Assembly: GCA_044356215.1 (NCBI GenBank)
Contig: JBIKWQ010000052.1
Location: 1 to 25,178 of the forward strand
From: Bdellovibrionota bacterium
GTDB taxonomy: Bacteria; Bdellovibrionota_C; UBA2361; OMII01
Length of the DNA: 25,178 bases
Direction of reading: 5' to 3'
In this document: piece after piece, positions 1 through 25,178 of the stretch
How the letters are laid out: every line of letters begins with the position of its first letter
Numbering within the stretch: the stretch's first letter is position 1
The notes under the pieces: generated by a model
Databases searched by the model: none
The model's input: only the letters and a program-made list of their open reading frames with translations
What the model was told of the DNA's origin: nothing
Program-made: the position numbers and the translations under genes

Positions 1-762
1 TGTTCCGGAGATCTGCGACCTCACTTCAAACGGCTGCAAGCTCTGATTACTCTCAATAATCGCCAGAACCTCGCCCTTTTGAACTGGATCTCCTATGTGT
101 TTGCGCCCCTCTTTAACCACTCCCGCAAAACGCGGCATAACGTGCGCGAGTCTGTGCTCGCTAGGAAGGATCTTGCCCCGGATCCTTAGGGTGCGGGCAA
201 TCTTCCTAACCGCCGCGCGCTCTACCTTTACACCAGAGCTCTCCGCGACCTCTTTAGATATACTCACCCGCCCCTCTGGAGACGAATACTCCCAAGATAG
301 ATTCTTACCTCGACATTCCGCCGATACAGAGACATCGAATGAGTGCGGTTCTTTAACTTGATCCTCTGCGGCTGATTGTTCGTGATGCGACTCACCTTTA
401 TTAGCAGCTCCTCCACCACATCCAGCGAATAGCAGGCCTGAAGTCACTAGAAGAGAGAGGTATCCCCTAGGGGAGCGAGGCAAAACCTGCCCGTAGCGAG
501 AAAGTGGAGGTTGAGTTGATATTCGAGTTTCGTGATGAGAAAAAACCGCACCAGCCTTCGCCAAGGCTACGTCTGGTCCGATGAAAACCTCGCCGGCCGT
601 AGCTTTAGCGAAGGCCGGAGATGTATCCACGACTCGACTGAGCTCGCCGAAGTCTGAGATACATTGAGGATTTTTTCTCGTCGCGAAATTCGAAGAGCAG
701 CTAAAGATCTGCTTTCGCAGCAGGGAGGGGTTTTGCCTCGCTTCCCTAAAAGACTTTTGCAT
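1..762 (-). CDS. RND efflux periplasmic adaptor (CzcB/HelB-like), 5' part, runs off the window; carries a 93-codon in-frame palindromic insertion
   Basis: Manual translation: ATG at 762-760 directly follows the TolC TAA, with no stop down to base 1. MQKSF[93-aa insert]RGYLSLLVTSGLLFAGCGGG...VKEPHSFDVSVSAECRGKNLSWEYSSPEGRV...AHVMPRFAGVVKEGRKHIGDPVQKGEVLAIIESNQSLQPFEVRSQISGT. Shows lipoyl-half motifs of membrane fusion proteins, a lipobox FAGC and a His-containing linker. Not in the ORF track because the stop lies outside the window. Confidence 0.9.
   Translation of the reverse strand, partial: MQKSFREARQNPSLLRKQIFSCSSNFATRKNPQCISDFGELSRVVDTSPAFAKATAGEVFIGPDVALAKAGAVFSHHETRISTQPPLSRYGQVLPRSPRGYLSLLVTSGLLFAGCGGGAANKGESHHEQSAAEDQVKEPHSFDVSVSAECRGKNLSWEYSSPEGRVSISKEVAESSGVKVERAAVRKIARTLRIRGKILPSEHRLAHVMPRFAGVVKEGRKHIGDPVQKGEVLAIIESNQSLQPFEVRSQISGT
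551..618. repeat. REP-like inverted pair nested inside the 468-748 element
   Basis: CCAGCCTTCGCCAAGGCTACGTCTGG ... CCGGCCGTAGCTTTAGCGAAGGCCGG; the right arm reverse-complements to CCGGCCTTCGCTAAAGCTACGGCCGG. It interrupts the symmetric core of the outer element. Confidence 0.8.
631..654. repeat. 24-bp mini-palindrome nested in the central loop of the 468-748 element
   Basis: GACTCGACTGAGCTCGCCGAAGTC has GACT...AGTC ends and a central GAGCTC. It lies between the arms GATGTATC and GATACATT and encodes exactly 8 codons (DFGELSRV) in the adaptor frame. Confidence 0.6.
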
Positions 763-2040
763 TTAAATCTCCTCTCCTATTAAGACTGCTAAACGAGAAC
801 GGGCATTAACTGCCTCTAGCCAAACAGTTAGAGCTTCAAGCTGCGCGTCATTGTAGGTACGCAGGGTCTGCCACACCTGAAGAACATTCCCTTTTCCTTT
901 GGCGTAAAGCTGCTCTTGTGACTTAAGGGCTCCAGAGAACGCCGGCACGACCTTAGATTGAAATATCTGCGCCTGCTCCCTTGCGCTAGCAGCCGCGGCT
1001 CGCAGAGCCACTACCTGAGCTTCAAAACCTCCATCAGCAAGGAGCTCTCGTTTTCGTCTCGCGGCTTCCTGTTCCGCCACGGCGCTCTCTATAGATCCAC
1101 GATTGCGATTAAATACTGGAAGAGGAATGCTGATTCCAGCACCTACAAAGTCACCGCCATCGTTTGTGTGTTGATAAACCACTCGCGGCGCGAATTCCGG
1201 GATAGCATCTAGCTCAGCCAATCGGCGTTGCTCGGAGCTAAGTGCTGACACTAGCTCAACACGAGCTAGCTCTCCTATCTCACTGGCGCGCGCTTTATCG
1301 ATTAATACAGATTCGCTTGGAATATCGCCTAATCCAGATGGAGTTACAGCCTTCATCCCGCATGGGGTTCCTAATAAAAGGCTCTGCTCATAACGCAAAA
1401 CAGCCAAAGCAGATCTTAATCCAGCGCGTTGCGATTGAAGACGATACTTCTCACCTTCGAAGAGTTGGTGATCACCCTCAGATAGCAACCCCTTCTCCAC
1501 TCCTTCATGGATTAACTCAACTTTCTTAGTAGCCCTCTTCTCTGCCTCAGCGAGGATCTCATCGCTACGTTGCAAAACATACAGACTCGCGTACTGAGAC
1601 ACTAGCTTCTGAGTGAACTCAAGTAGCTTAGCTCTTCGTTGCTGATCGCCTGCGCTTCGAAGAAGTGTCGCCACACGAGATTTAGCGCCAAAATTTGAGA
1701 GCCTTAACGGCATCGCCAAGCTCGCGTTTGTTTGAGGATCGCTATCACCTCCGAGCTTCATCCTGGTGTAAACCTGTTCGAACTGAAGCTCTGGGTTTCT
1801 GAACACCTCAGTATCGTACGCCTTAGCGACCTCTCTGGCGTATTGACTATCGATCTCAGAAACCAGCGGACTTCGCTCAAGCGCTATCGCTCGAAATTCA
1901 TCTAGTGTTACCTGACGCAGACAAGACTCGGTTGATGTTGCCTGTTGGTACTGCTTGTTTGGGGAAGCGTTAGAGATACTCGGGGCCGCAAGTAGTAGTA
2001 GCCCAAAAATAAGACCGGGAAATGAGAGTGATAGAGGCAT
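763..2040 (-). CDS. TolC family outer-membrane efflux protein (CzcC-like)
   Basis: 425 aa with a signal peptide, two OEP-like halves (NPELQFE; GAGISIPLPVFNRNRGSI) and a C-terminal LAVLIG. Sits immediately upstream of the adaptor gene. Confidence 0.92.
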   Translation of the reverse strand: MPLSLSFPGLIFGLLLLAAPSISNASPNKQYQQATSTESCLRQVTLDEFRAIALERSPLVSEIDSQYAREVAKAYDTEVFRNPELQFEQVYTRMKLGGDSDPQTNASLAMPLRLSNFGAKSRVATLLRSAGDQQRRAKLLEFTQKLVSQYASLYVLQRSDEILAEAEKRATKKVELIHEGVEKGLLSEGDHQLFEGEKYRLQSQRAGLRSALAVLRYEQSLLLGTPCGMKAVTPSGLGDIPSESVLIDKARASEIGELARVELVSALSSEQRRLAELDAIPEFAPRVVYQHTNDGGDFVGAGISIPLPVFNRNRGSIESAVAEQEAARRKRELLADGGFEAQVVALRAAAASAREQAQIFQSKVVPAFSGALKSQEQLYAKGKGNVLQVWQTLRTYNDAQLEALTVWLEAVNARSRLAVLIGEEI

Positions 2041-2988: not shown

Positions 2989-4115
2989 CCAATATCCAAG
3001 AGTACCTAAGCTTTTACTCTGACTCTTTCACCTCATCTCGTGCCCGATTTCTAGCAGAAACAGCGCGACTCGGTGCCCAGCTCCACTCCATCCAGATTCC
3101 AAGCGCTACCCACAAAAATGGAGATGATCTAGCGATCGACATAGCGGTCATCGGTGATATCAACGCGGATAAACACTTAGTCTGCAGTGCTGGAACTCAC
3201 GGAATTGAGGGATTTGTTGGGTCAGCTATTCAACTAGGTATTTTTAAAAGGATGCGACACCCCCCTGAAGGCTGCGCGCTAATCTTTGTGCATTGCTTAA
3301 ATCCCTGGGGAATGTCGAATTATAGACGCACTAATGAACAGAACGTCGACCTGAATCGGAATTGGCGACTACCTGACTCGGCTATCTCTCCGGCGCCGCC
3401 ACATTATGAGGATCTCAGACCAATACTATTACCTGAAACGCCTTGTTCCTTTCCGACCTTCACACTTAAAGCTCTCTCAAAGGTCGCCAAGCTCGGATTC
3501 CCTGCTGTAAAGCAGGCTGTCACAGGAGGCCAATATCTCGACCAAAACGGGTTGTTCTTCGGTGGCCACAAAGTACAGCCAGAACTTGAGCTCTTCGGAG
3601 AGTGGGCCAAAGCGCACCTCTCCCATTCAGAGAGAATAATCGCAATTGATATTCACTCTGGACTGGGTCGCTTTGGTGACTACACGTTGCTAATAGATCA
3701 TCACATAGATTCAGAGGAGCACTCAAGAGTGGTGGAGATATTTGGCGCGGAGAAGGTACACGGCCCTGATCCGAGACTAGGGATCTCTTATAAAACTTCC
3801 GGGTCGGCGGGAGAACTTCTTCCCTGCCTTCTGCCACAAACCAAGGTGGATCATCTGGTCCATGAATTTGGAACCTTGCATCCGTTTAAAGTTTTACATG
3901 CGCTGGTTCAGGAGAACTTCTACTACCATTCAAACCTTGTCACTAAAACTGGGGGTATCGAGCGTCCCGGCGCGCGACTTCTAAAGGATACCTTCTGCCC
4001 ACCCTCCGATCTTTGGCGCAGAAACGCTGTATCAAATGGACTGTTGATATTCGATACTGCCGTGACCCACCTGACTAACTGCAACTTCCTAGCCCCTTAC
4101 CTGCATCTCAACTAA
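2985..4115 (+). CDS. M14-like zinc metallopeptidase (DUF2817 family)
   Basis: GTHGIEG (HxxE), HCLNPWG, RRTNEQNVDLNRN, IDIHSG and HEFGT motifs. ATGA overlap with the upstream gene. Confidence 0.85.
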   Translation: MTNIQEYLSFYSDSFTSSRARFLAETARLGAQLHSIQIPSATHKNGDDLAIDIAVIGDINADKHLVCSAGTHGIEGFVGSAIQLGIFKRMRHPPEGCALIFVHCLNPWGMSNYRRTNEQNVDLNRNWRLPDSAISPAPPHYEDLRPILLPETPCSFPTFTLKALSKVAKLGFPAVKQAVTGGQYLDQNGLFFGGHKVQPELELFGEWAKAHLSHSERIIAIDIHSGLGRFGDYTLLIDHHIDSEEHSRVVEIFGAEKVHGPDPRLGISYKTSGSAGELLPCLLPQTKVDHLVHEFGTLHPFKVLHALVQENFYYHSNLVTKTGGIERPGARLLKDTFCPPSDLWRRNAVSNGLLIFDTAVTHLTNCNFLAPYLHLN

Positions 4116-4124
4116 GGGCAATTT

Positions 4125-7100
4125 ATGATCAAACTAGTCCTGTCACTGCTATTCCTGCCAATTGCTTTAATCGCTGGGGTACTCTGCGATAGAGCCAATG
4201 CGGACTCGCGTCGAGTTGGCGATGGCAAAGCGAGCCTAGTTTTCTATTCTCAGCAGGGTGAGGTTCTACGTGAAATACACGGACTTAATGGTGTCCTTGG
4301 GTGCATGACTGACCCTGATGGCTCGATTCTCTTCTCCTCCTCTGGGAAGAACGAGCTTCAGCGGATCGATCAACAAGGCAACATCTCGTCACTCTTTTCT
4401 CTTCAAGGGCAACCTAGCATTGTAAAACGCAACCAGAACGGAGAATACCTGGTGATTATGGGCTCTAAAGTTTTAATGCTCAACCCTGATGGCTCGACTA
4501 AATACTCCGTCTCCGCTGAGTTCATCTCTGATGTTGATTTCCATCCTGCAGGCGGGTTTCTGGCTGTTATCAACACATGGAATGGATCACTAGTTCACTA
4601 CGATTGGAATGGCAAAGAGATCTGGCGCTCCACCAAGGTTCGCGAATCACCACAATTCCTCGGTCCTCTCTACGGGATCACCAGCAGAGACTCTAACACT
4701 CACCTGGTCAGTGATGGCAACTACACTTACGAGGTCTCTCGTGATTATCAGATCACTAAAAAGCATAGTTTGAGAGCTATTCCGGGCGGCTCTGTGCCCC
4801 GTTATAGAGCAGATGGTGGAGTGTTTCTGTTCTCTACTTCAGAGATGTCCGCTGGCGCTCTGACGCCAGATGGCACCATCTCTGGATTCTCGTCTAATCT
4901 CGATGTTACCTGCGGTGATAGCTTACCTGATGGCCGATTTTTTCTGACCTTCTATCCTCGTCCGGCTGGTGAATGGAAGGGTCGATCATTTTATGCCGAC
5001 TACTCATCGATTAAGCCGAAGTTAACTTTTAGCTCAGTTGGTGGAGTTATAATACTTACGATCCTATGCTCGCTAGCCGTCGTATCTCTCACTCGCCGGT
5101 ATATGGCTGGAATCAACTGGCCCGCATGGCGCGAGGACTCAACGGGATCGAAAGCCCACATTCACCCTTCATCCAGATTATCTTCACGCAAAGGGTTTCT
5201 GACATCCTCGCTGCTGACGATGCTGATTCTCACCTTATTCGCTACTGGATGCTGGCTATTTAATCAGGGCATACTTCGGCTAAAAGCTCTTGAATTTGGC
5301 CCCTCGTCACTCTGGTTTATTGGGGGCGCATTCTCCGTAGCGGCATCGATTACTCTCCTTAATTACCTGTTAGCTTTACCGCGCGATTTTACGCGCTTTG
5401 GATTAACATCTCTCTACTCACGCTTTGAAAACAGGTTGTGGTGGCCGCTCCTGATAATCGGTGTTATCGCTGGCGGCGCCTGCTCCTACCTACACCAGAC
5501 AACTGGTGACACCAAACTCGCGGTAGCTCTCTGGTTCGCGGCTCCTATATTTTTTATCGGAGCTTTTAGATCAAAACAGATCGCCGACTCCGATCAAGAT
5601 CGATTTATATCTCGTCAACTACTGCCCCTACTTCTCTGCATTAGCGCGCTTATTAATTTTTGGCAGATCGGATTCTATCCAGACCTTCTTCACCACGATC
5701 ACGGCATCATCGGACAGTCAGCGCTTAAGATCCTGCTAGGTGATTGGAACCCCTTCTTCATTCTCGATCCGAACACCAATACAATGATGCGTCCGTGGCT
5801 CTTACCGATGAGCGCTACTCTGTACCTATTTGGCTATGACTATTGGGTACTCCGCGTCACCGCTGCTGTTTGGGGGATCGCTCTTGTTTACGCCACCTAT
5901 TTATTCGCGTCAACGATTAGCTCTAAGCGTCTTGGAATTATCGCCGCTACTTTCGCTGCGACGCACCACATCTTGCTGGTATATATAAGGCAGCCATACG
6001 TAACCGAATCAACCGCGCCATTCATGTTTTGTATGTACTTCTTGGTTTCAGCGCTAAAAACCGGCTCGTTAAGGAGTTGGGCCTGGTGCGGAGCTTGGGC
6101 CGGACTATCGATGTTATCAATCAGACAGTGCACTACATTCCCGTTTATATGGGGAACGCTGTTTATTTGCTGTTCTCTGCTATTTTTCAAGTCAATTTGG
6201 CGTAACAAGACAGGGCTTCTTGTATTGCTAATCAGCGGCCTGATTATAACAGGCCCCTTTATCTTAACGTTTGTTTCCGCTCCAAGTGGTGGAGCGTTAG
6301 TCGATAGACTCTCTCAAACATCGATCTTGTTTGGAACTAATCTAAAGCCAAATCCTGATCTTAAAGTTTGGGCACATCAGTTCGGCCGCTCATTCGGCGG
6401 CTTCCTTTTTTACACCGATGAAAGCCACTGGGGGATCACCACTCCCTCGCCTATTTTTCTAGCTTTCACCGCGTGTCTATTCATGACCGGTGTAGCGTAC
6501 CTAATCCTGAGACCTCTTAGAACCGCCGCTCCATTTATCCTGATCACAATACTTGTCAGCGTAACACTCGGCAGCGCCATGATCATGAGCCCGCCAAGTT
6601 ACTACCATTTCTTTGTGGGAATCATGATGGCTCTTGTAGCCGCCGCGATTCCACTGGAGCGGCTCTGGTCATGCGCCACAGTAATTAGTTATCGGCCGAT
6701 TAGCTACGCGATTAGGGCTCTAGTGATAGCTGCTGTGGTTTTCTTCGCGACAGAGAGTTTCTCTCCGTTCTGGAGGATCACAAATCGGCCGGCATCGTCT
6801 AGGGATCCTGCACTCGCGGCGTGGGGTCCTAATATCTACTCAGTTATGGGACGCTGGGTTGGAGACCACCAAAACACCCGATTCTATATCGTTAGACAAC
6901 CTCGTGGCGGATTCTCCTCTACCGATGGAATCTTTCATTTCTTAGGATTTTACTCAGACCTATCTGATATCATGTACGATCTCGATTCCGATATACCAGT
7001 AAAACCTGATGACTCATACGACGAGTTTCAAGTCGTGGTACTTCCTCAACGCGCTCAGGTCATACCCAGCCTAAAGAGCGTCTATCCAAACGGCAAATGG

Positions 7101-24968: not shown

Positions 24969-25110
24969 GACGCGGTTTGGCTCGTAGTTAAGCCCATTTT
25001 TTAATGGAAACCGGTAGGTGTGCAAATCCCACGCCATGTATTTAGGGGAAATATACACGATCTATTCGATCGTCTCTCATCCGGCATCATATAATAAGAG
25101 CTGATTGCCT

Positions 25111-25178
25111 TAGGGAAGGCCGGCAAAACCCTCCCTACTGCGAAAGCGGATCTTGAGCTGCTCTTCGAGTTTTCGAGA
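25111..25178. mobile_element. Second copy of the RPE1-like element, cut by the window end
   Basis: TAGGGAAGGCCGGCAAAACCCTCCCTACTGCGAAAGCGGATCTTGAGCTGCTCTTCGAGTTT vs the reverse complement of the arm ending at 748, TAGGGAAGCGAGGCAAAACCCCTCCCTGCTGCGAAAGCAGATCTTTAGCTGCTCTTCGAATTT. Confidence 0.88.

Follow-up and report, generated by a model that had tools for sequence, protein, structure and literature searches.

A recent MITE insertion in frame within the lipoprotein signal of a CzcB/ZneB-like adaptor gene

How can a gene for an exported lipoprotein take up a mobile element a few codons after its start and remain open, and is its product still likely to reach the envelope? The question is raised by the first 762 nucleotides of a 25,178-nt contig (the window, meaning here the whole stretch analysed) from an uncultured freshwater lineage labelled Bdellovibrionota. 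An earlier note, made from the letters of the window, had described a palindromic mobile element there, likened it to the Rickettsia palindromic elements (RPEs) and suggested that selection kept it readable.

The insertion, the empty site and the operon

The adaptor open reading frame (762..1, minus strand) encodes 254 amino acids before the contig ends, consisting of MQKSF, 93 inserted residues and RGYLSLLVTSGLLFAGC. After codon 5, the element and its duplicated target lengthen the gene by 279 nt, a multiple of three, and the adaptor ATG (762–760) abuts the stop codon of the upstream TolC-like gene (765–763) in the string TAAATG. The foldback, the inserted length, the 93 stop-free codons and the abutting ATG had all been described in the earlier note and are all in the sequence. 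Its boundaries needed correction: in place of a TA-bounded element of 281 bp, the duplication is a 4-bp YTAR and the element proper is 275 nt long (Table 1). This refinement leaves the inserted length and the predicted empty site as before. The two copies of the duplication differ by one base. The inverted-repeat arms (468–545 and 671–748) are 78 nt long and 74% complementary, and the RNA fold of the element stretch reaches −146.5 kcal/mol, against −99.0 ± 5.6 for 100 shuffles, none of which matched it (z = −8.5). The hairpin begins 14 nt downstream of the adaptor ATG, from where it could impede initiation or invite cleavage. The adaptor frame is the only one of the six that is open through the 279-nt insert, and the peptide it encodes includes the REARQNPSLLRK region. 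An Rfam search of positions 300–900 gave zero matches at E ≤ 1.

Table 1 Features of the window that bear on the insertion
Feature	Position	Strand	Detail
Adaptor gene, CzcB/ZneB-like periplasmic, 5′ part	1..762	-	ATG 762–760; runs off contig
In-frame deletion junction	361..365	-	231 nt (77 codons) relative to L111 (its 3902–4132); 5-nt microhomology
Native signal-peptide remainder	418..468	-	RGYLSLLVTSGLLFAG plus lipobox Cys (codon 115)
Target-site duplication, left copy	467..470	.	CTAG on plus strand; family-wide 4-bp YTAR
Inserted codons in adaptor frame (93)	469..747	-	REARQNPSLLRKQIFSC...GQVLPRSP; same element frame read in the C84 EamA gene
MITE proper, 275 nt, long foldback	471..745	.	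terminal inverted repeats GGGAGCGAGGCAAAAC / GTTTTGCCTCGCTTCC
In-frame TTG in element 3′ end	481..483	-	candidate restart; would give M-PRSPRGYLSLLVTSGLLFAGC
Central module of long copies	551..653	.	missing from the 182/183-nt short form
Target-site duplication, right copy	746..749	.	CTAA on plus strand (TTAG in coding sense)
TolC-like outer-membrane efflux protein gene, 425 aa	763..2040	-	stop TAA 765–763; Pfam OEP PF02321, 62.9 bits
Shine-Dalgarno-like GGAGAGGAG	769..777	-	within tolC 3′ end; would serve adaptor ATG
Partial copy of the same MITE	25110..25172	.	opposite contig end

The empty site that the earlier note had sought in orthologous tolC–adaptor junctions was found in a close relative, the metagenome contig L111, whose TolC is 96% identical in amino acids (about 94% in nucleotides) and whose junction reads MQKSLRVYLSLLVASGLLFAGC with the element absent. 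All 19 of 19 relatives start the adaptor at the tolC stop, have a Cys 20–50 residues on and have short lipoprotein signals. The empty site also appeared, more weakly but exactly as predicted, in one contig of sequencing run X4, which joins position 464 to 744 with four shared letters and skips exactly 279 nt; this joint is weak evidence, as its short side has only 26 letters, below the tool's caution of 30. The same joint implies that the right copy of the duplication, CTAA, is the original target. Over tolC, the X4 contigs that carry the ancestral form depart from the window at only 6 of 857 positions, and they belong to a ~99%-identical strain. The occupied allele was assembled without differences in contigs of runs X1, X2 and X3 (three studies, 2020–2024) that run from the adaptor into the element; the source sample itself may be among these three runs. 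The allele counts are based on contigs of these four runs. We conclude that this is a known kind of event, a recent MITE insertion that is absent from close relatives.

Family domains confirm the tripartite order TolC-like protein, CzcB/ZneB-like adaptor and RND pump. The adaptor gene resumes on contig C45 with a 5-nt overlap; C45 carries an intact C-terminal half (181 aa, HlyD_D23) followed by an intact pump of 1054 aa (ACR_tran, 1023 bits), and there are zero stops or frameshifts in either. Against HlyD_D23 (cut-off 30), the part in the window scores 25.3 bits and so falls short, whereas the part on C45 scores 56.9 and the L111 adaptor 92.2. The full-length L111 protein matches ZneB (PDB 3lnn, E 2.5e-13), and TolC orthologues were present in 17 of the 24 congeners sampled. 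The operon is thus predicted to encode a heavy-metal-efflux-type RND tripartite pump of putative metal specificity. Translation of the adaptor probably begins from the Shine-Dalgarno-like GGAGAGGAG as ribosome-binding site, in keeping with a GGAG-rich tolC end and an abutting or overlapping adaptor start in 19/19 relatives.

The element sits in the n-region of the lipoprotein signal, as the earlier note had it, and its excision restores a normal signal, as in L111. The hydrophobic core LSLLVTSGLLF and the lipobox FAGC, the latter a form of the lipobox consensus of bacterial lipoprotein signals, are both present and both conserved in L111, where the aligned remainder of the signal reads RVYLSLLVASGLLFAGC. 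The n-region is 98 residues long in place of ~5. Three relatives (L033–L035) naturally have about 30 extra residues ahead of the core; the 93-residue extension is roughly three times the longest natural n-region among relatives, and export may therefore fail.

The MITE family and its likely parent

The earlier description of a multi-copy palindromic mobile element holds: the family has about 110 merged loci in the 3.24-Mb genome, 55 of them complete internal copies, and matches in 26 of the 34 other genomes of the genus. Copies range from 181 to 304 nt, contain 0–3 short open frames each and have the same terminal inverted repeats across all 55. The two short copies C84 and C9 match only positions 2–85 and 189–284 of the query, and the window copy is longer than these nearest relatives (182 nt) by 93 nt, or 31 codons. 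The flanking 4-mers are identical in 35 of 59 end-pairs; 17 of these are non-palindromic (TTAG/TTAG or CTAA/CTAA) and so cannot arise from TA plus an inverted repeat. Among 45 xTAx pairs, the outer base is equal in 39 and the inner base in 41. Correia elements duplicate TA, and a Correia-like TA-duplication model of the IS630/Tc1-mariner type was rejected here, as TA plus inverted repeat fits only 26 of the 45 pairs. The element is a MITE: we observed terminal repeats, a fixed 4-bp duplication, many small transposase-free copies, an autonomous insertion sequence (IS) with matching ends in a congener, and empty sites. A limited literature search found no description of MITEs in this phylum.

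The window's assembly is 96% complete and breaks at repeats, and many of its contigs terminate inside family copies. When the 93-aa insert peptide was compared with a protein library, 14 proteins matched at E ≤ 0.001: 13 are ORFs of 33–155 aa over other copies, and the remaining one, a 2448-aa repeat protein, was set aside as unrelated. As the library is reduced to a single representative for each 50% cluster, insert-bearing host proteins may be hidden, and this search yields no count of genic copies.

An IS of 1501 bp in the congener G011 (L070:1200–2700) has terminal 16–17 nt identical to the ends of the window copy and is flanked by YTAR; only these ends are in common with the MITE. Its 397-aa DDE transposase reaches 260.5 bits on NCBIfam IS4_1 (cut-off 115) and matches no IS5 model at E ≤ 0.001. 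CTAG borders three IS copies homologous to this one. The assembly that holds the window yielded no IS with the window-copy ends: the sole IS homologue, on C82, is 55% identical and has other ends, and the only PF01609 gene of this genome was rejected as parent because its ends are unrelated. The family is thus an ordinary IS-derived MITE, with the G011-type IS as the likely parent type on the strength of the shared termini.

A 4-bp YTAR target duplication is a hallmark of the IS5 group, and the MITE family has both this duplication and the group's GGAAGG ends. IS5A of E. coli K-12 has GGAAGG at both ends, which read GGAAGGTGCGAA, and the MITE ends also begin with GGAAGG. The transposases differ, however: InsH of E. 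coli matches IS5_4 (366 bits), the G011 enzyme matches IS4_1 instead, and the two align weakly (24% identity over 87 residues). IS5-family parentage is therefore ruled out at the level of the transposase. IS5-derived MITEs do exist, an example being MITEPsy1 (PMC3189936).

Genic copies, open frames and known in-frame elements

Although an ORF proxy puts the coding share of the genome at about 86%, few of the 55 complete copies lie inside genes. Clear in-frame intragenic insertions number 2/55; another 11 copies fall at the last 0–4 codons of an ORF, at stop codons, and most others are intergenic. The second in-frame case, C84:24696–24877, uses the same element frame within a loop of an EamA transporter gene. 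EamA orthologues at 84–85% identity lack exactly residues 59–118, and the empty site was seen in genomes G004 and G050. A third copy, C16:73575, splits a Peripla_BP_6 gene out of frame by adding 188 nt. The intragenic tally, two clear in-frame against one clear and one possible frame-breaking case, is a tiny count. Two further copies, one beside a Polysacc_synt fragment (C54:14146) and one where a DUF4269 gene ends (C49:13745), have no gene remainder beyond the element. Two candidates were rejected: C60:6516, which seemed intragenic after in-silico excision, lies just upstream of a ychF-like start, and a 256-aa open frame over a copy in G011 (C63) is Arg-rich non-coding read-through.

The earlier note had calculated that a random 93-codon stretch is stop-free only about 1% of the time, (61/64)^93, and had taken this as a sign of selection for readthrough. 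The calculation assumes random sequence, but the frame in use characterises the family: 26 of 30 short copies, almost all lying outside genes, and 2 of 25 long copies have it open. Because openness is family-wide, the chance argument does not demonstrate local selection. Copies with a length divisible by three number 21/55, close to one third. An apparent selection for read-through can come from a family-wide open frame combined with the loss of disruptive copies: genic copies may be seen in frame because frame-breaking ones were purged, a survivorship filter, and not because the present copy was moulded to its site.

The likeness to RPEs is a loose one. RPEs (Ogata et al. 2000, as reviewed in PMC10969869 and PMC2229807) are palindromic, lie in frame in genes and are absent from orthologues. 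The present element shares these traits, being a palindromic, non-coding, multi-copy repeat that is stop-free in frame inside protein genes and missing from orthologues. What did not carry over is the pattern of residence. Nearly half of the copies in three RPE families lie in frame within genes, according to PMC10969869, against 2/55 here; the census of in-frame against intergenic copies that the earlier note had proposed finds in-frame residence rare, and the C16 copy breaks its gene. The present family also differs in its IS-type ends, 4-bp duplication and matching IS, and in a host that is not Rickettsia. Host lineage and IS-type ends make RPE family membership unlikely.

Further parallels come from other MITEs covered in PMC2229807. 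The Correia/NEMIS elements of Neisseria occur as 107-bp and 155-bp species, the short form open and ORF-fused, the long form with stops and intergenic; the two sizes here, with the used frame mostly open in short copies and closed in long ones, resemble this arrangement as it is outlined there. The differences are that our family duplicates YTAR and that the window copy, although long, chances to be open. Yersinia YPAL/RU-2 and ERIC elements form in-frame fusions, and the signal peptide of YPO1552 is partly MITE-formed (PMC2229807). As in that case, translated MITE sequence here belongs to the export region at the N-terminus of a protein predicted to be exported. In YPO1552, as presented there, the element is proposed to help form a new signal, whereas the present copy interrupts the n-region of a conserved signal that was already there and contributes no hydrophobic core. 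The locus is a clean population-level case of a bacterial MITE soon after an in-frame landing in an export signal, with both alleles and the likely parent IS type known.

Likely fate of the adaptor

Our preferred reading, held with modest confidence, is that a genus-wide IS-derived MITE landed at a YTAR site, is likely read through, and leaves a precursor that is still targeted, with the insert as a passenger. The copy inserted five codons into the adaptor gene of the tolC–adaptor–RND operon. Since the landing frame runs through all 279 nt of the insert without a stop, ribosomes starting from the native ATG are likely to read through it. The resulting lipoprotein precursor would carry, in front of its hydrophobic core and lipobox, a positively charged extension of 93 residues; the core may act as an internal N-in signal, with cleavage at the lipobox, so that the insert would be discarded, its effect neutral or mildly harmful. 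The long mRNA hairpin may reduce expression of adaptor and pump. An RPE-bearing guanylate kinase that remains active (discussed in PMC10969869 and PMC2229807) is a precedent for such a neutral passenger. If exported, the extended precursor would be a useful natural construct for studies of signal-peptide tolerance.

The chief alternative is a recent knockout, in which the insertion, with or without a second lesion, inactivated the adaptor and left a newly formed pseudogene in an operon that is being lost. We regard this as possible but on balance doubtful. The second lesion is the 77-codon deletion (Table 1), so that two independent changes fall within 400 nt of the gene's start, neither of them present in L111 or the X4 contigs, as fits a dispensable gene. 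The undeleted form was found in run X4 (record 28), the deleted form in the contigs of X1–X3. The deleted stretch, the RGPHGG region, is kept in L111 and conserved among relatives. The occupied allele has this deletion as well, and the function of its adaptor is accordingly only putative. Chance could explain that frame: a copy of 3n length with one of six frames open lands open about once in six, and a deletion stays in frame one time in three. The family also breaks genes elsewhere, as in the Peripla_BP_6 gene. Measured against L111, the adaptor core has a dN/dS of 0.09–0.10, TolC one of 0.12 and the pump one of 0.054, but both changes in the allele are recent, so these low values are uninformative on the time since insertion and decay would not yet be visible in them. 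Against a knockout, both lesions keep the frame, the remaining adaptor and the 1054-aa pump are undisrupted, and the occupied allele was assembled in three studies over several years, 2020–2024. The deleted part, moreover, has zero Pfam family matches and lies outside the ZneB-homologous core, which begins near residue 172 of the relative's adaptor.

An extension of the passenger reading, which we think unlikely, is that the 182-nt form and its 275-nt derivative make up a coding-compatible sub-lineage, 3n in length with the duplication and with one open frame, and that a 115-residue signal (instead of 22) still works. Such a sub-lineage could live inside genes for membrane and exported proteins, would offer a natural experiment on the N-terminal load that Sec targeting and lipoprotein processing can bear, and would open a MITE route to new cytoplasmic N-terminal tails on exported proteins.

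It is improbable that the element is adaptive, with the family or a sub-lineage selected as readable and the hairpin kept to adjust adaptor and pump levels to that of TolC. The three copies most alike (window, C84:24696 and C9:42990) share a 1-nt loss that makes element plus duplication 3n with one continuous open frame, and two of the three are in genes. Where most copies have TAG, the window copy has CAG and the C84 copy AAG, but non-genic copies (C32 and C9:42990) have this CAG too. The openness of mostly intergenic short copies and the near one-third share of 3n copies likewise argue against selection. Long hairpins of Neisseria MITEs are proposed as RNase III targets in a part of PMC2229807. 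Tuning of adaptor and pump against TolC, as the earlier note had ventured, is unsupported: a promoter and terminator scan of positions 300–2300 found no promoter-like or terminator-like site within the element, and its totals did not exceed the shuffle means. As neither the ~99%-identical strain nor any of the relatives has the insertion, it has no conserved role.

Least probable of all is an internal restart at the in-frame TTG (483–481), by which the element would donate a start giving MPRSPRGYLSLLVTSGLLFAGC, a near-normal lipoprotein signal with two Arg before the unchanged hydrophobic core and lipobox: the site has no good Shine-Dalgarno (a weak GGGCAGG ends 2 nt before the TTG) and is paired within the base of the −146 kcal/mol hairpin, the element has no promoter-like site, and the native ATG lies upstream in the same frame with a strong Shine-Dalgarno and stop–start contact with tolC, so that ribosomes already cover the TTG site. 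For annotation, over-long or mis-started lipoprotein and transporter genes and repeat-induced contig breaks are to be expected in these genomes.

MITE insertion at the tolC–adaptor junction

The adaptor ORF translates as MQKSF, followed by 93 residues and then RGYLSLLVTSGLLFAGC, and carries a HlyD_D23 match. The 93 extra codons coincide with a foldback whose 78-nt arms (468-545 and 671-748) are 74% complementary, with an RNA folding energy of -146.5 kcal/mol, compared with -99.0 +/- 5.6 for 100 shuffles (z -8.5). ORF, arm and RNA-fold analyses confirmed all that the earlier note described of the ORF, the junction and the foldback. We conclude that a MITE has entered a YTAR site downstream of a strong tolC-coupled start and has left the reading frame intact and free of stops.

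Features of the window around the tolC–adaptor junction
Feature	Position	Strand	Basis or remark
TolC-like gene, 425 aa	2040..763	minus	Pfam OEP, 62.9 bits
TolC-like stop TAA	765-763	minus	ORF
Adaptor start ATG	762-760	minus	GGAGAGGAG upstream of ATG
MITE proper, window copy	471-745		flanks CTAG and CTAA, one base apart; family flank analysis
231-nt deletion junction	~361-365	minus	5-nt microhomology; comparison with ~94%-identical L111

A blastn search of the window's own genome (3.24 Mb, 131 contigs) with 466-750 gave 207 pieces, merged into 110 loci, many of them at contig ends, including 25110-25172 at the far end of the window contig. The 55 complete, internal copies fall mainly into four sizes (183 nt, n=23; 251, n=12; 252, n=8; 182, n=5), long copies being short copies plus a central module; the 275 nt of the window copy is unique among them. 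The ends read GGAAG(G/C)(C/G)(C/A)GGCAAAAC. Flanking 4-mers were identical in 35 of 59 end-pairs (TTAG 11, CTAG 10, TTAA 8, CTAA 6), and where both flanks read xTAx (45 pairs) the outer base agreed in 39 and the inner base in 41. The target duplication is therefore a 4-bp YTAR and not the TA boundary proposed in the earlier note; a TA duplication with one extra inverted-repeat base fitted only 26 of the 45 pairs. Of 34 further genomes in the genus, 26 have matches to the family. In some copies a partial extra end stands beside the full element, or there are internal tandem duplications (299-304 nt); examples in the window's genome are C62:2261-2564, C15:10403-10684 and C109:4390-4688. These forms point to nested insertion or slippage in the history of the family.

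Among 30 loci recovered across the genus with PF01609, one in a congener (G011:C374; L070:1200-2700) is a 1501-bp IS with terminal 16-17 nt identical to the ends of the window MITE and with CTAG and TTAA flanks; the two have only their ends in common. Its 397-aa transposase scores 260.5 bits on NCBIfam IS4_1 (cut-off 115). E. coli IS5A has GGAAGG at both ends, like the MITE; its transposase InsH matches IS5 models and aligns only weakly with the G011 protein. The single PF01609 gene in the window's own assembly (C82) is 55% identical to the G011 protein, has ends that differ from those of the MITE and adjoins CTAG; it and the homologues in G024 and G050 (53-55% identity in all) have other ends and CTAG flanks. 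We conclude that this is an ordinary IS-derived MITE family, with IS5-like ends and target (by the general IS5 target rule) and of IS4 type by the transposase model.

Adaptor alleles and the state of the operon

In the tolC loci of all 19 relatives, whose TolC is 46-62% identical, the adaptor begins directly at the tolC stop or overlaps it, a lipobox Cys, placed by the general lipobox consensus, lies 20-50 residues after the adaptor start, and the MITE insert is absent from the junction. Three congeners (L033, L034 and L035) have about 30 extra residues ahead of the hydrophobic core, so the length of the lipoprotein n-region varies naturally in this adaptor. In L111, a close metagenome relative (TolC 96% identical in amino acids, ~94% in nucleotides), the junction reads ...GGAGAGGAGATTTAAATGCAAAAGTCTTTGAGGGTATACC... 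= MQKSLRVYLSLLVASGLLFAGC, and no copy of the MITE ends was found anywhere in its 6.3 kb.

Compared with L111, the window adaptor lacks 231 nt (77 codons, in frame; L111 3902-4132; FERGPHGG...DFLTSQD). This segment, for which Pfam gave no match, precedes the ZneB-like core; it is conserved in the genus, with an RGPHGG motif kept by relatives. We compared contigs, rather than reads, from four lake or aquatic sequencing runs with window 1-1600. Contigs of X1, X2 and X3 (three studies, 2020-2024; one run may be the source sample) continue without a single difference from the adaptor into the element (1 or 11 to 515) and have the deleted form; another X1 contig leaves the element into tolC (720-1600). 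In X4, by contrast, the contigs include the undeleted form, record 28 having 226 additional letters at 361-365, and a contig of 1447 nt, which differs at 6 positions over 744-1600, goes straight from 464 to 744, skipping exactly 279 nt with 4 shared letters. This is the empty site foreseen in the earlier note, with target TTAG, but because the short side of the joint has only 26 letters we count it as a hint. The pairing of undeleted with empty in X4 and of deleted with occupied in X1-X3 indicates that both lesions are recent and linked.

The adaptor continues on contig C45, where its C-terminal half (181 aa; HlyD_D23, 56.9 bits) is intact and is followed by an intact pump of 1054 aa (ACR_tran, 1023 bits). 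The 5-nt overlap between the two contigs lies inside the adaptor gene (window 1); the operon is thus split by an assembly break and not at a repeat. Against L111, dN/dS was 0.12 for TolC (dS 0.19), 0.26 for 36 codons around the adaptor signal, 0.096 and 0.09 for the first and second parts of the adaptor core, and 0.054 for the first 410 codons of the pump; since both lesions are recent, these low values are uninformative on the time since they arose.

We tend to favour a reading in which the adaptor is still made and exported. Ribosomes would translate from the native ATG straight through the MITE, giving a predicted precursor with a 98-residue, net-positive n-region (14 Lys/Arg and 7 Asp/Glu, counted by eye from the translation); the hydrophobic core, which is unchanged, would serve as an internal signal, and the insert would be discarded when the lipobox is processed. 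That the adaptor is instead a young knockout, as the 77-codon deletion would favour, we regard as possible but rather unlikely.

Open frame and placement of MITE copies

The earlier note took a roughly 1% chance of a stop-free insert as a sign of selection. This argument does not hold, as 28 of the 55 copies have no stop in the frame used at the adaptor (E[A/G]RQNPSLLRK...). Because that frame is open in 26 of 30 short copies (and in 2 of 25 long ones), the window copy owes its open frame largely to the family. Of its six frames one is open, and base shuffles of the copy gave one or more open frames in 470 of 5000 trials. In 21 of 55 copies, MITE and duplication together have a length divisible by 3. 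The window copy and its nearest relatives, the 182-nt copies C84:24696 and C9:42990 (ends 95-98% identical), have lost one nucleotide in common, so that with the duplication they are 3n long; the window copy differs from the other two by 93 nt (31 codons). The open-frame pattern is the product expected of a survivorship filter and does not show selection at the adaptor locus; a selected regulatory or coding role for the MITE seems to us improbable. About as improbable is a restart of translation at TTG 483-481, which has a poor ribosome-binding site and is buried in the hairpin stem.

Despite a coding fraction of 86% (an ORF-plus-codon-score proxy, not a gene finder), copies within genes are few among the 55; contig-end copies, about half of all loci, were left unclassed. 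After in-silico excision, an ORF of at least 100 aa spanned the restored site in 21 copies. Eleven of these fall in the final 0-4 codons of long ORFs (for example C25:4647, C30:3179, C67:47253 and C105:1849): YTAR contains TAA or TAG, so the MITE often lands on a stop codon, which the duplication restores. Two, including the window copy, lie within the first 5 codons. The other eight comprise 3 to 4 genuinely internal copies and several that are false or unclear.

One internal copy (C84:24696-24877; L062) adds 182+4 = 186 nt in frame to a loop of an EamA transporter (73.4 bits in Pfam) and is read in the element frame that the adaptor also uses. G004 and G050 have orthologues (84-85% identical) with a single 291-aa frame in which residue 58 is followed directly by residue 119, so that exactly the 60-62 insert residues are missing. 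A Peripla_BP_6-like gene is split by a 184-nt copy (C16:73575-73758; L127), whose 188 added nt break the reading frame. The part after the insertion matches the profile from position 166 of 343 onward (E 5e-5, below the curated cut-off); the part before it is a short one, and the gene may have been decaying already. C48:13301 may be a second frame-breaking copy. The in-frame bias among genic copies that the earlier note expected thus comes down to 2 in-frame and 1 or 2 frame-breaking internal copies, which could be counted but are too few to test. A library-wide search with the insert peptide returned only short ORFs over other MITE copies and one unrelated repeat protein.

A limited literature search found no account of miniature inverted-repeat elements in Bdellovibrionota. 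The window MITE is a new member of an already known kind of in-frame fusion. In two published accounts (PMC10969869, PMC2229807), such fusions are well described: they include ERIC elements, a Yersinia palindromic element that forms part of the YPO1552 signal peptide, and RPEs, one of which is carried by an active guanylate kinase. They also describe Correia elements as a pair, a short open form that is intragenic and a long closed form that is intergenic, and the window MITE family mirrors this short-open, long-closed pattern.
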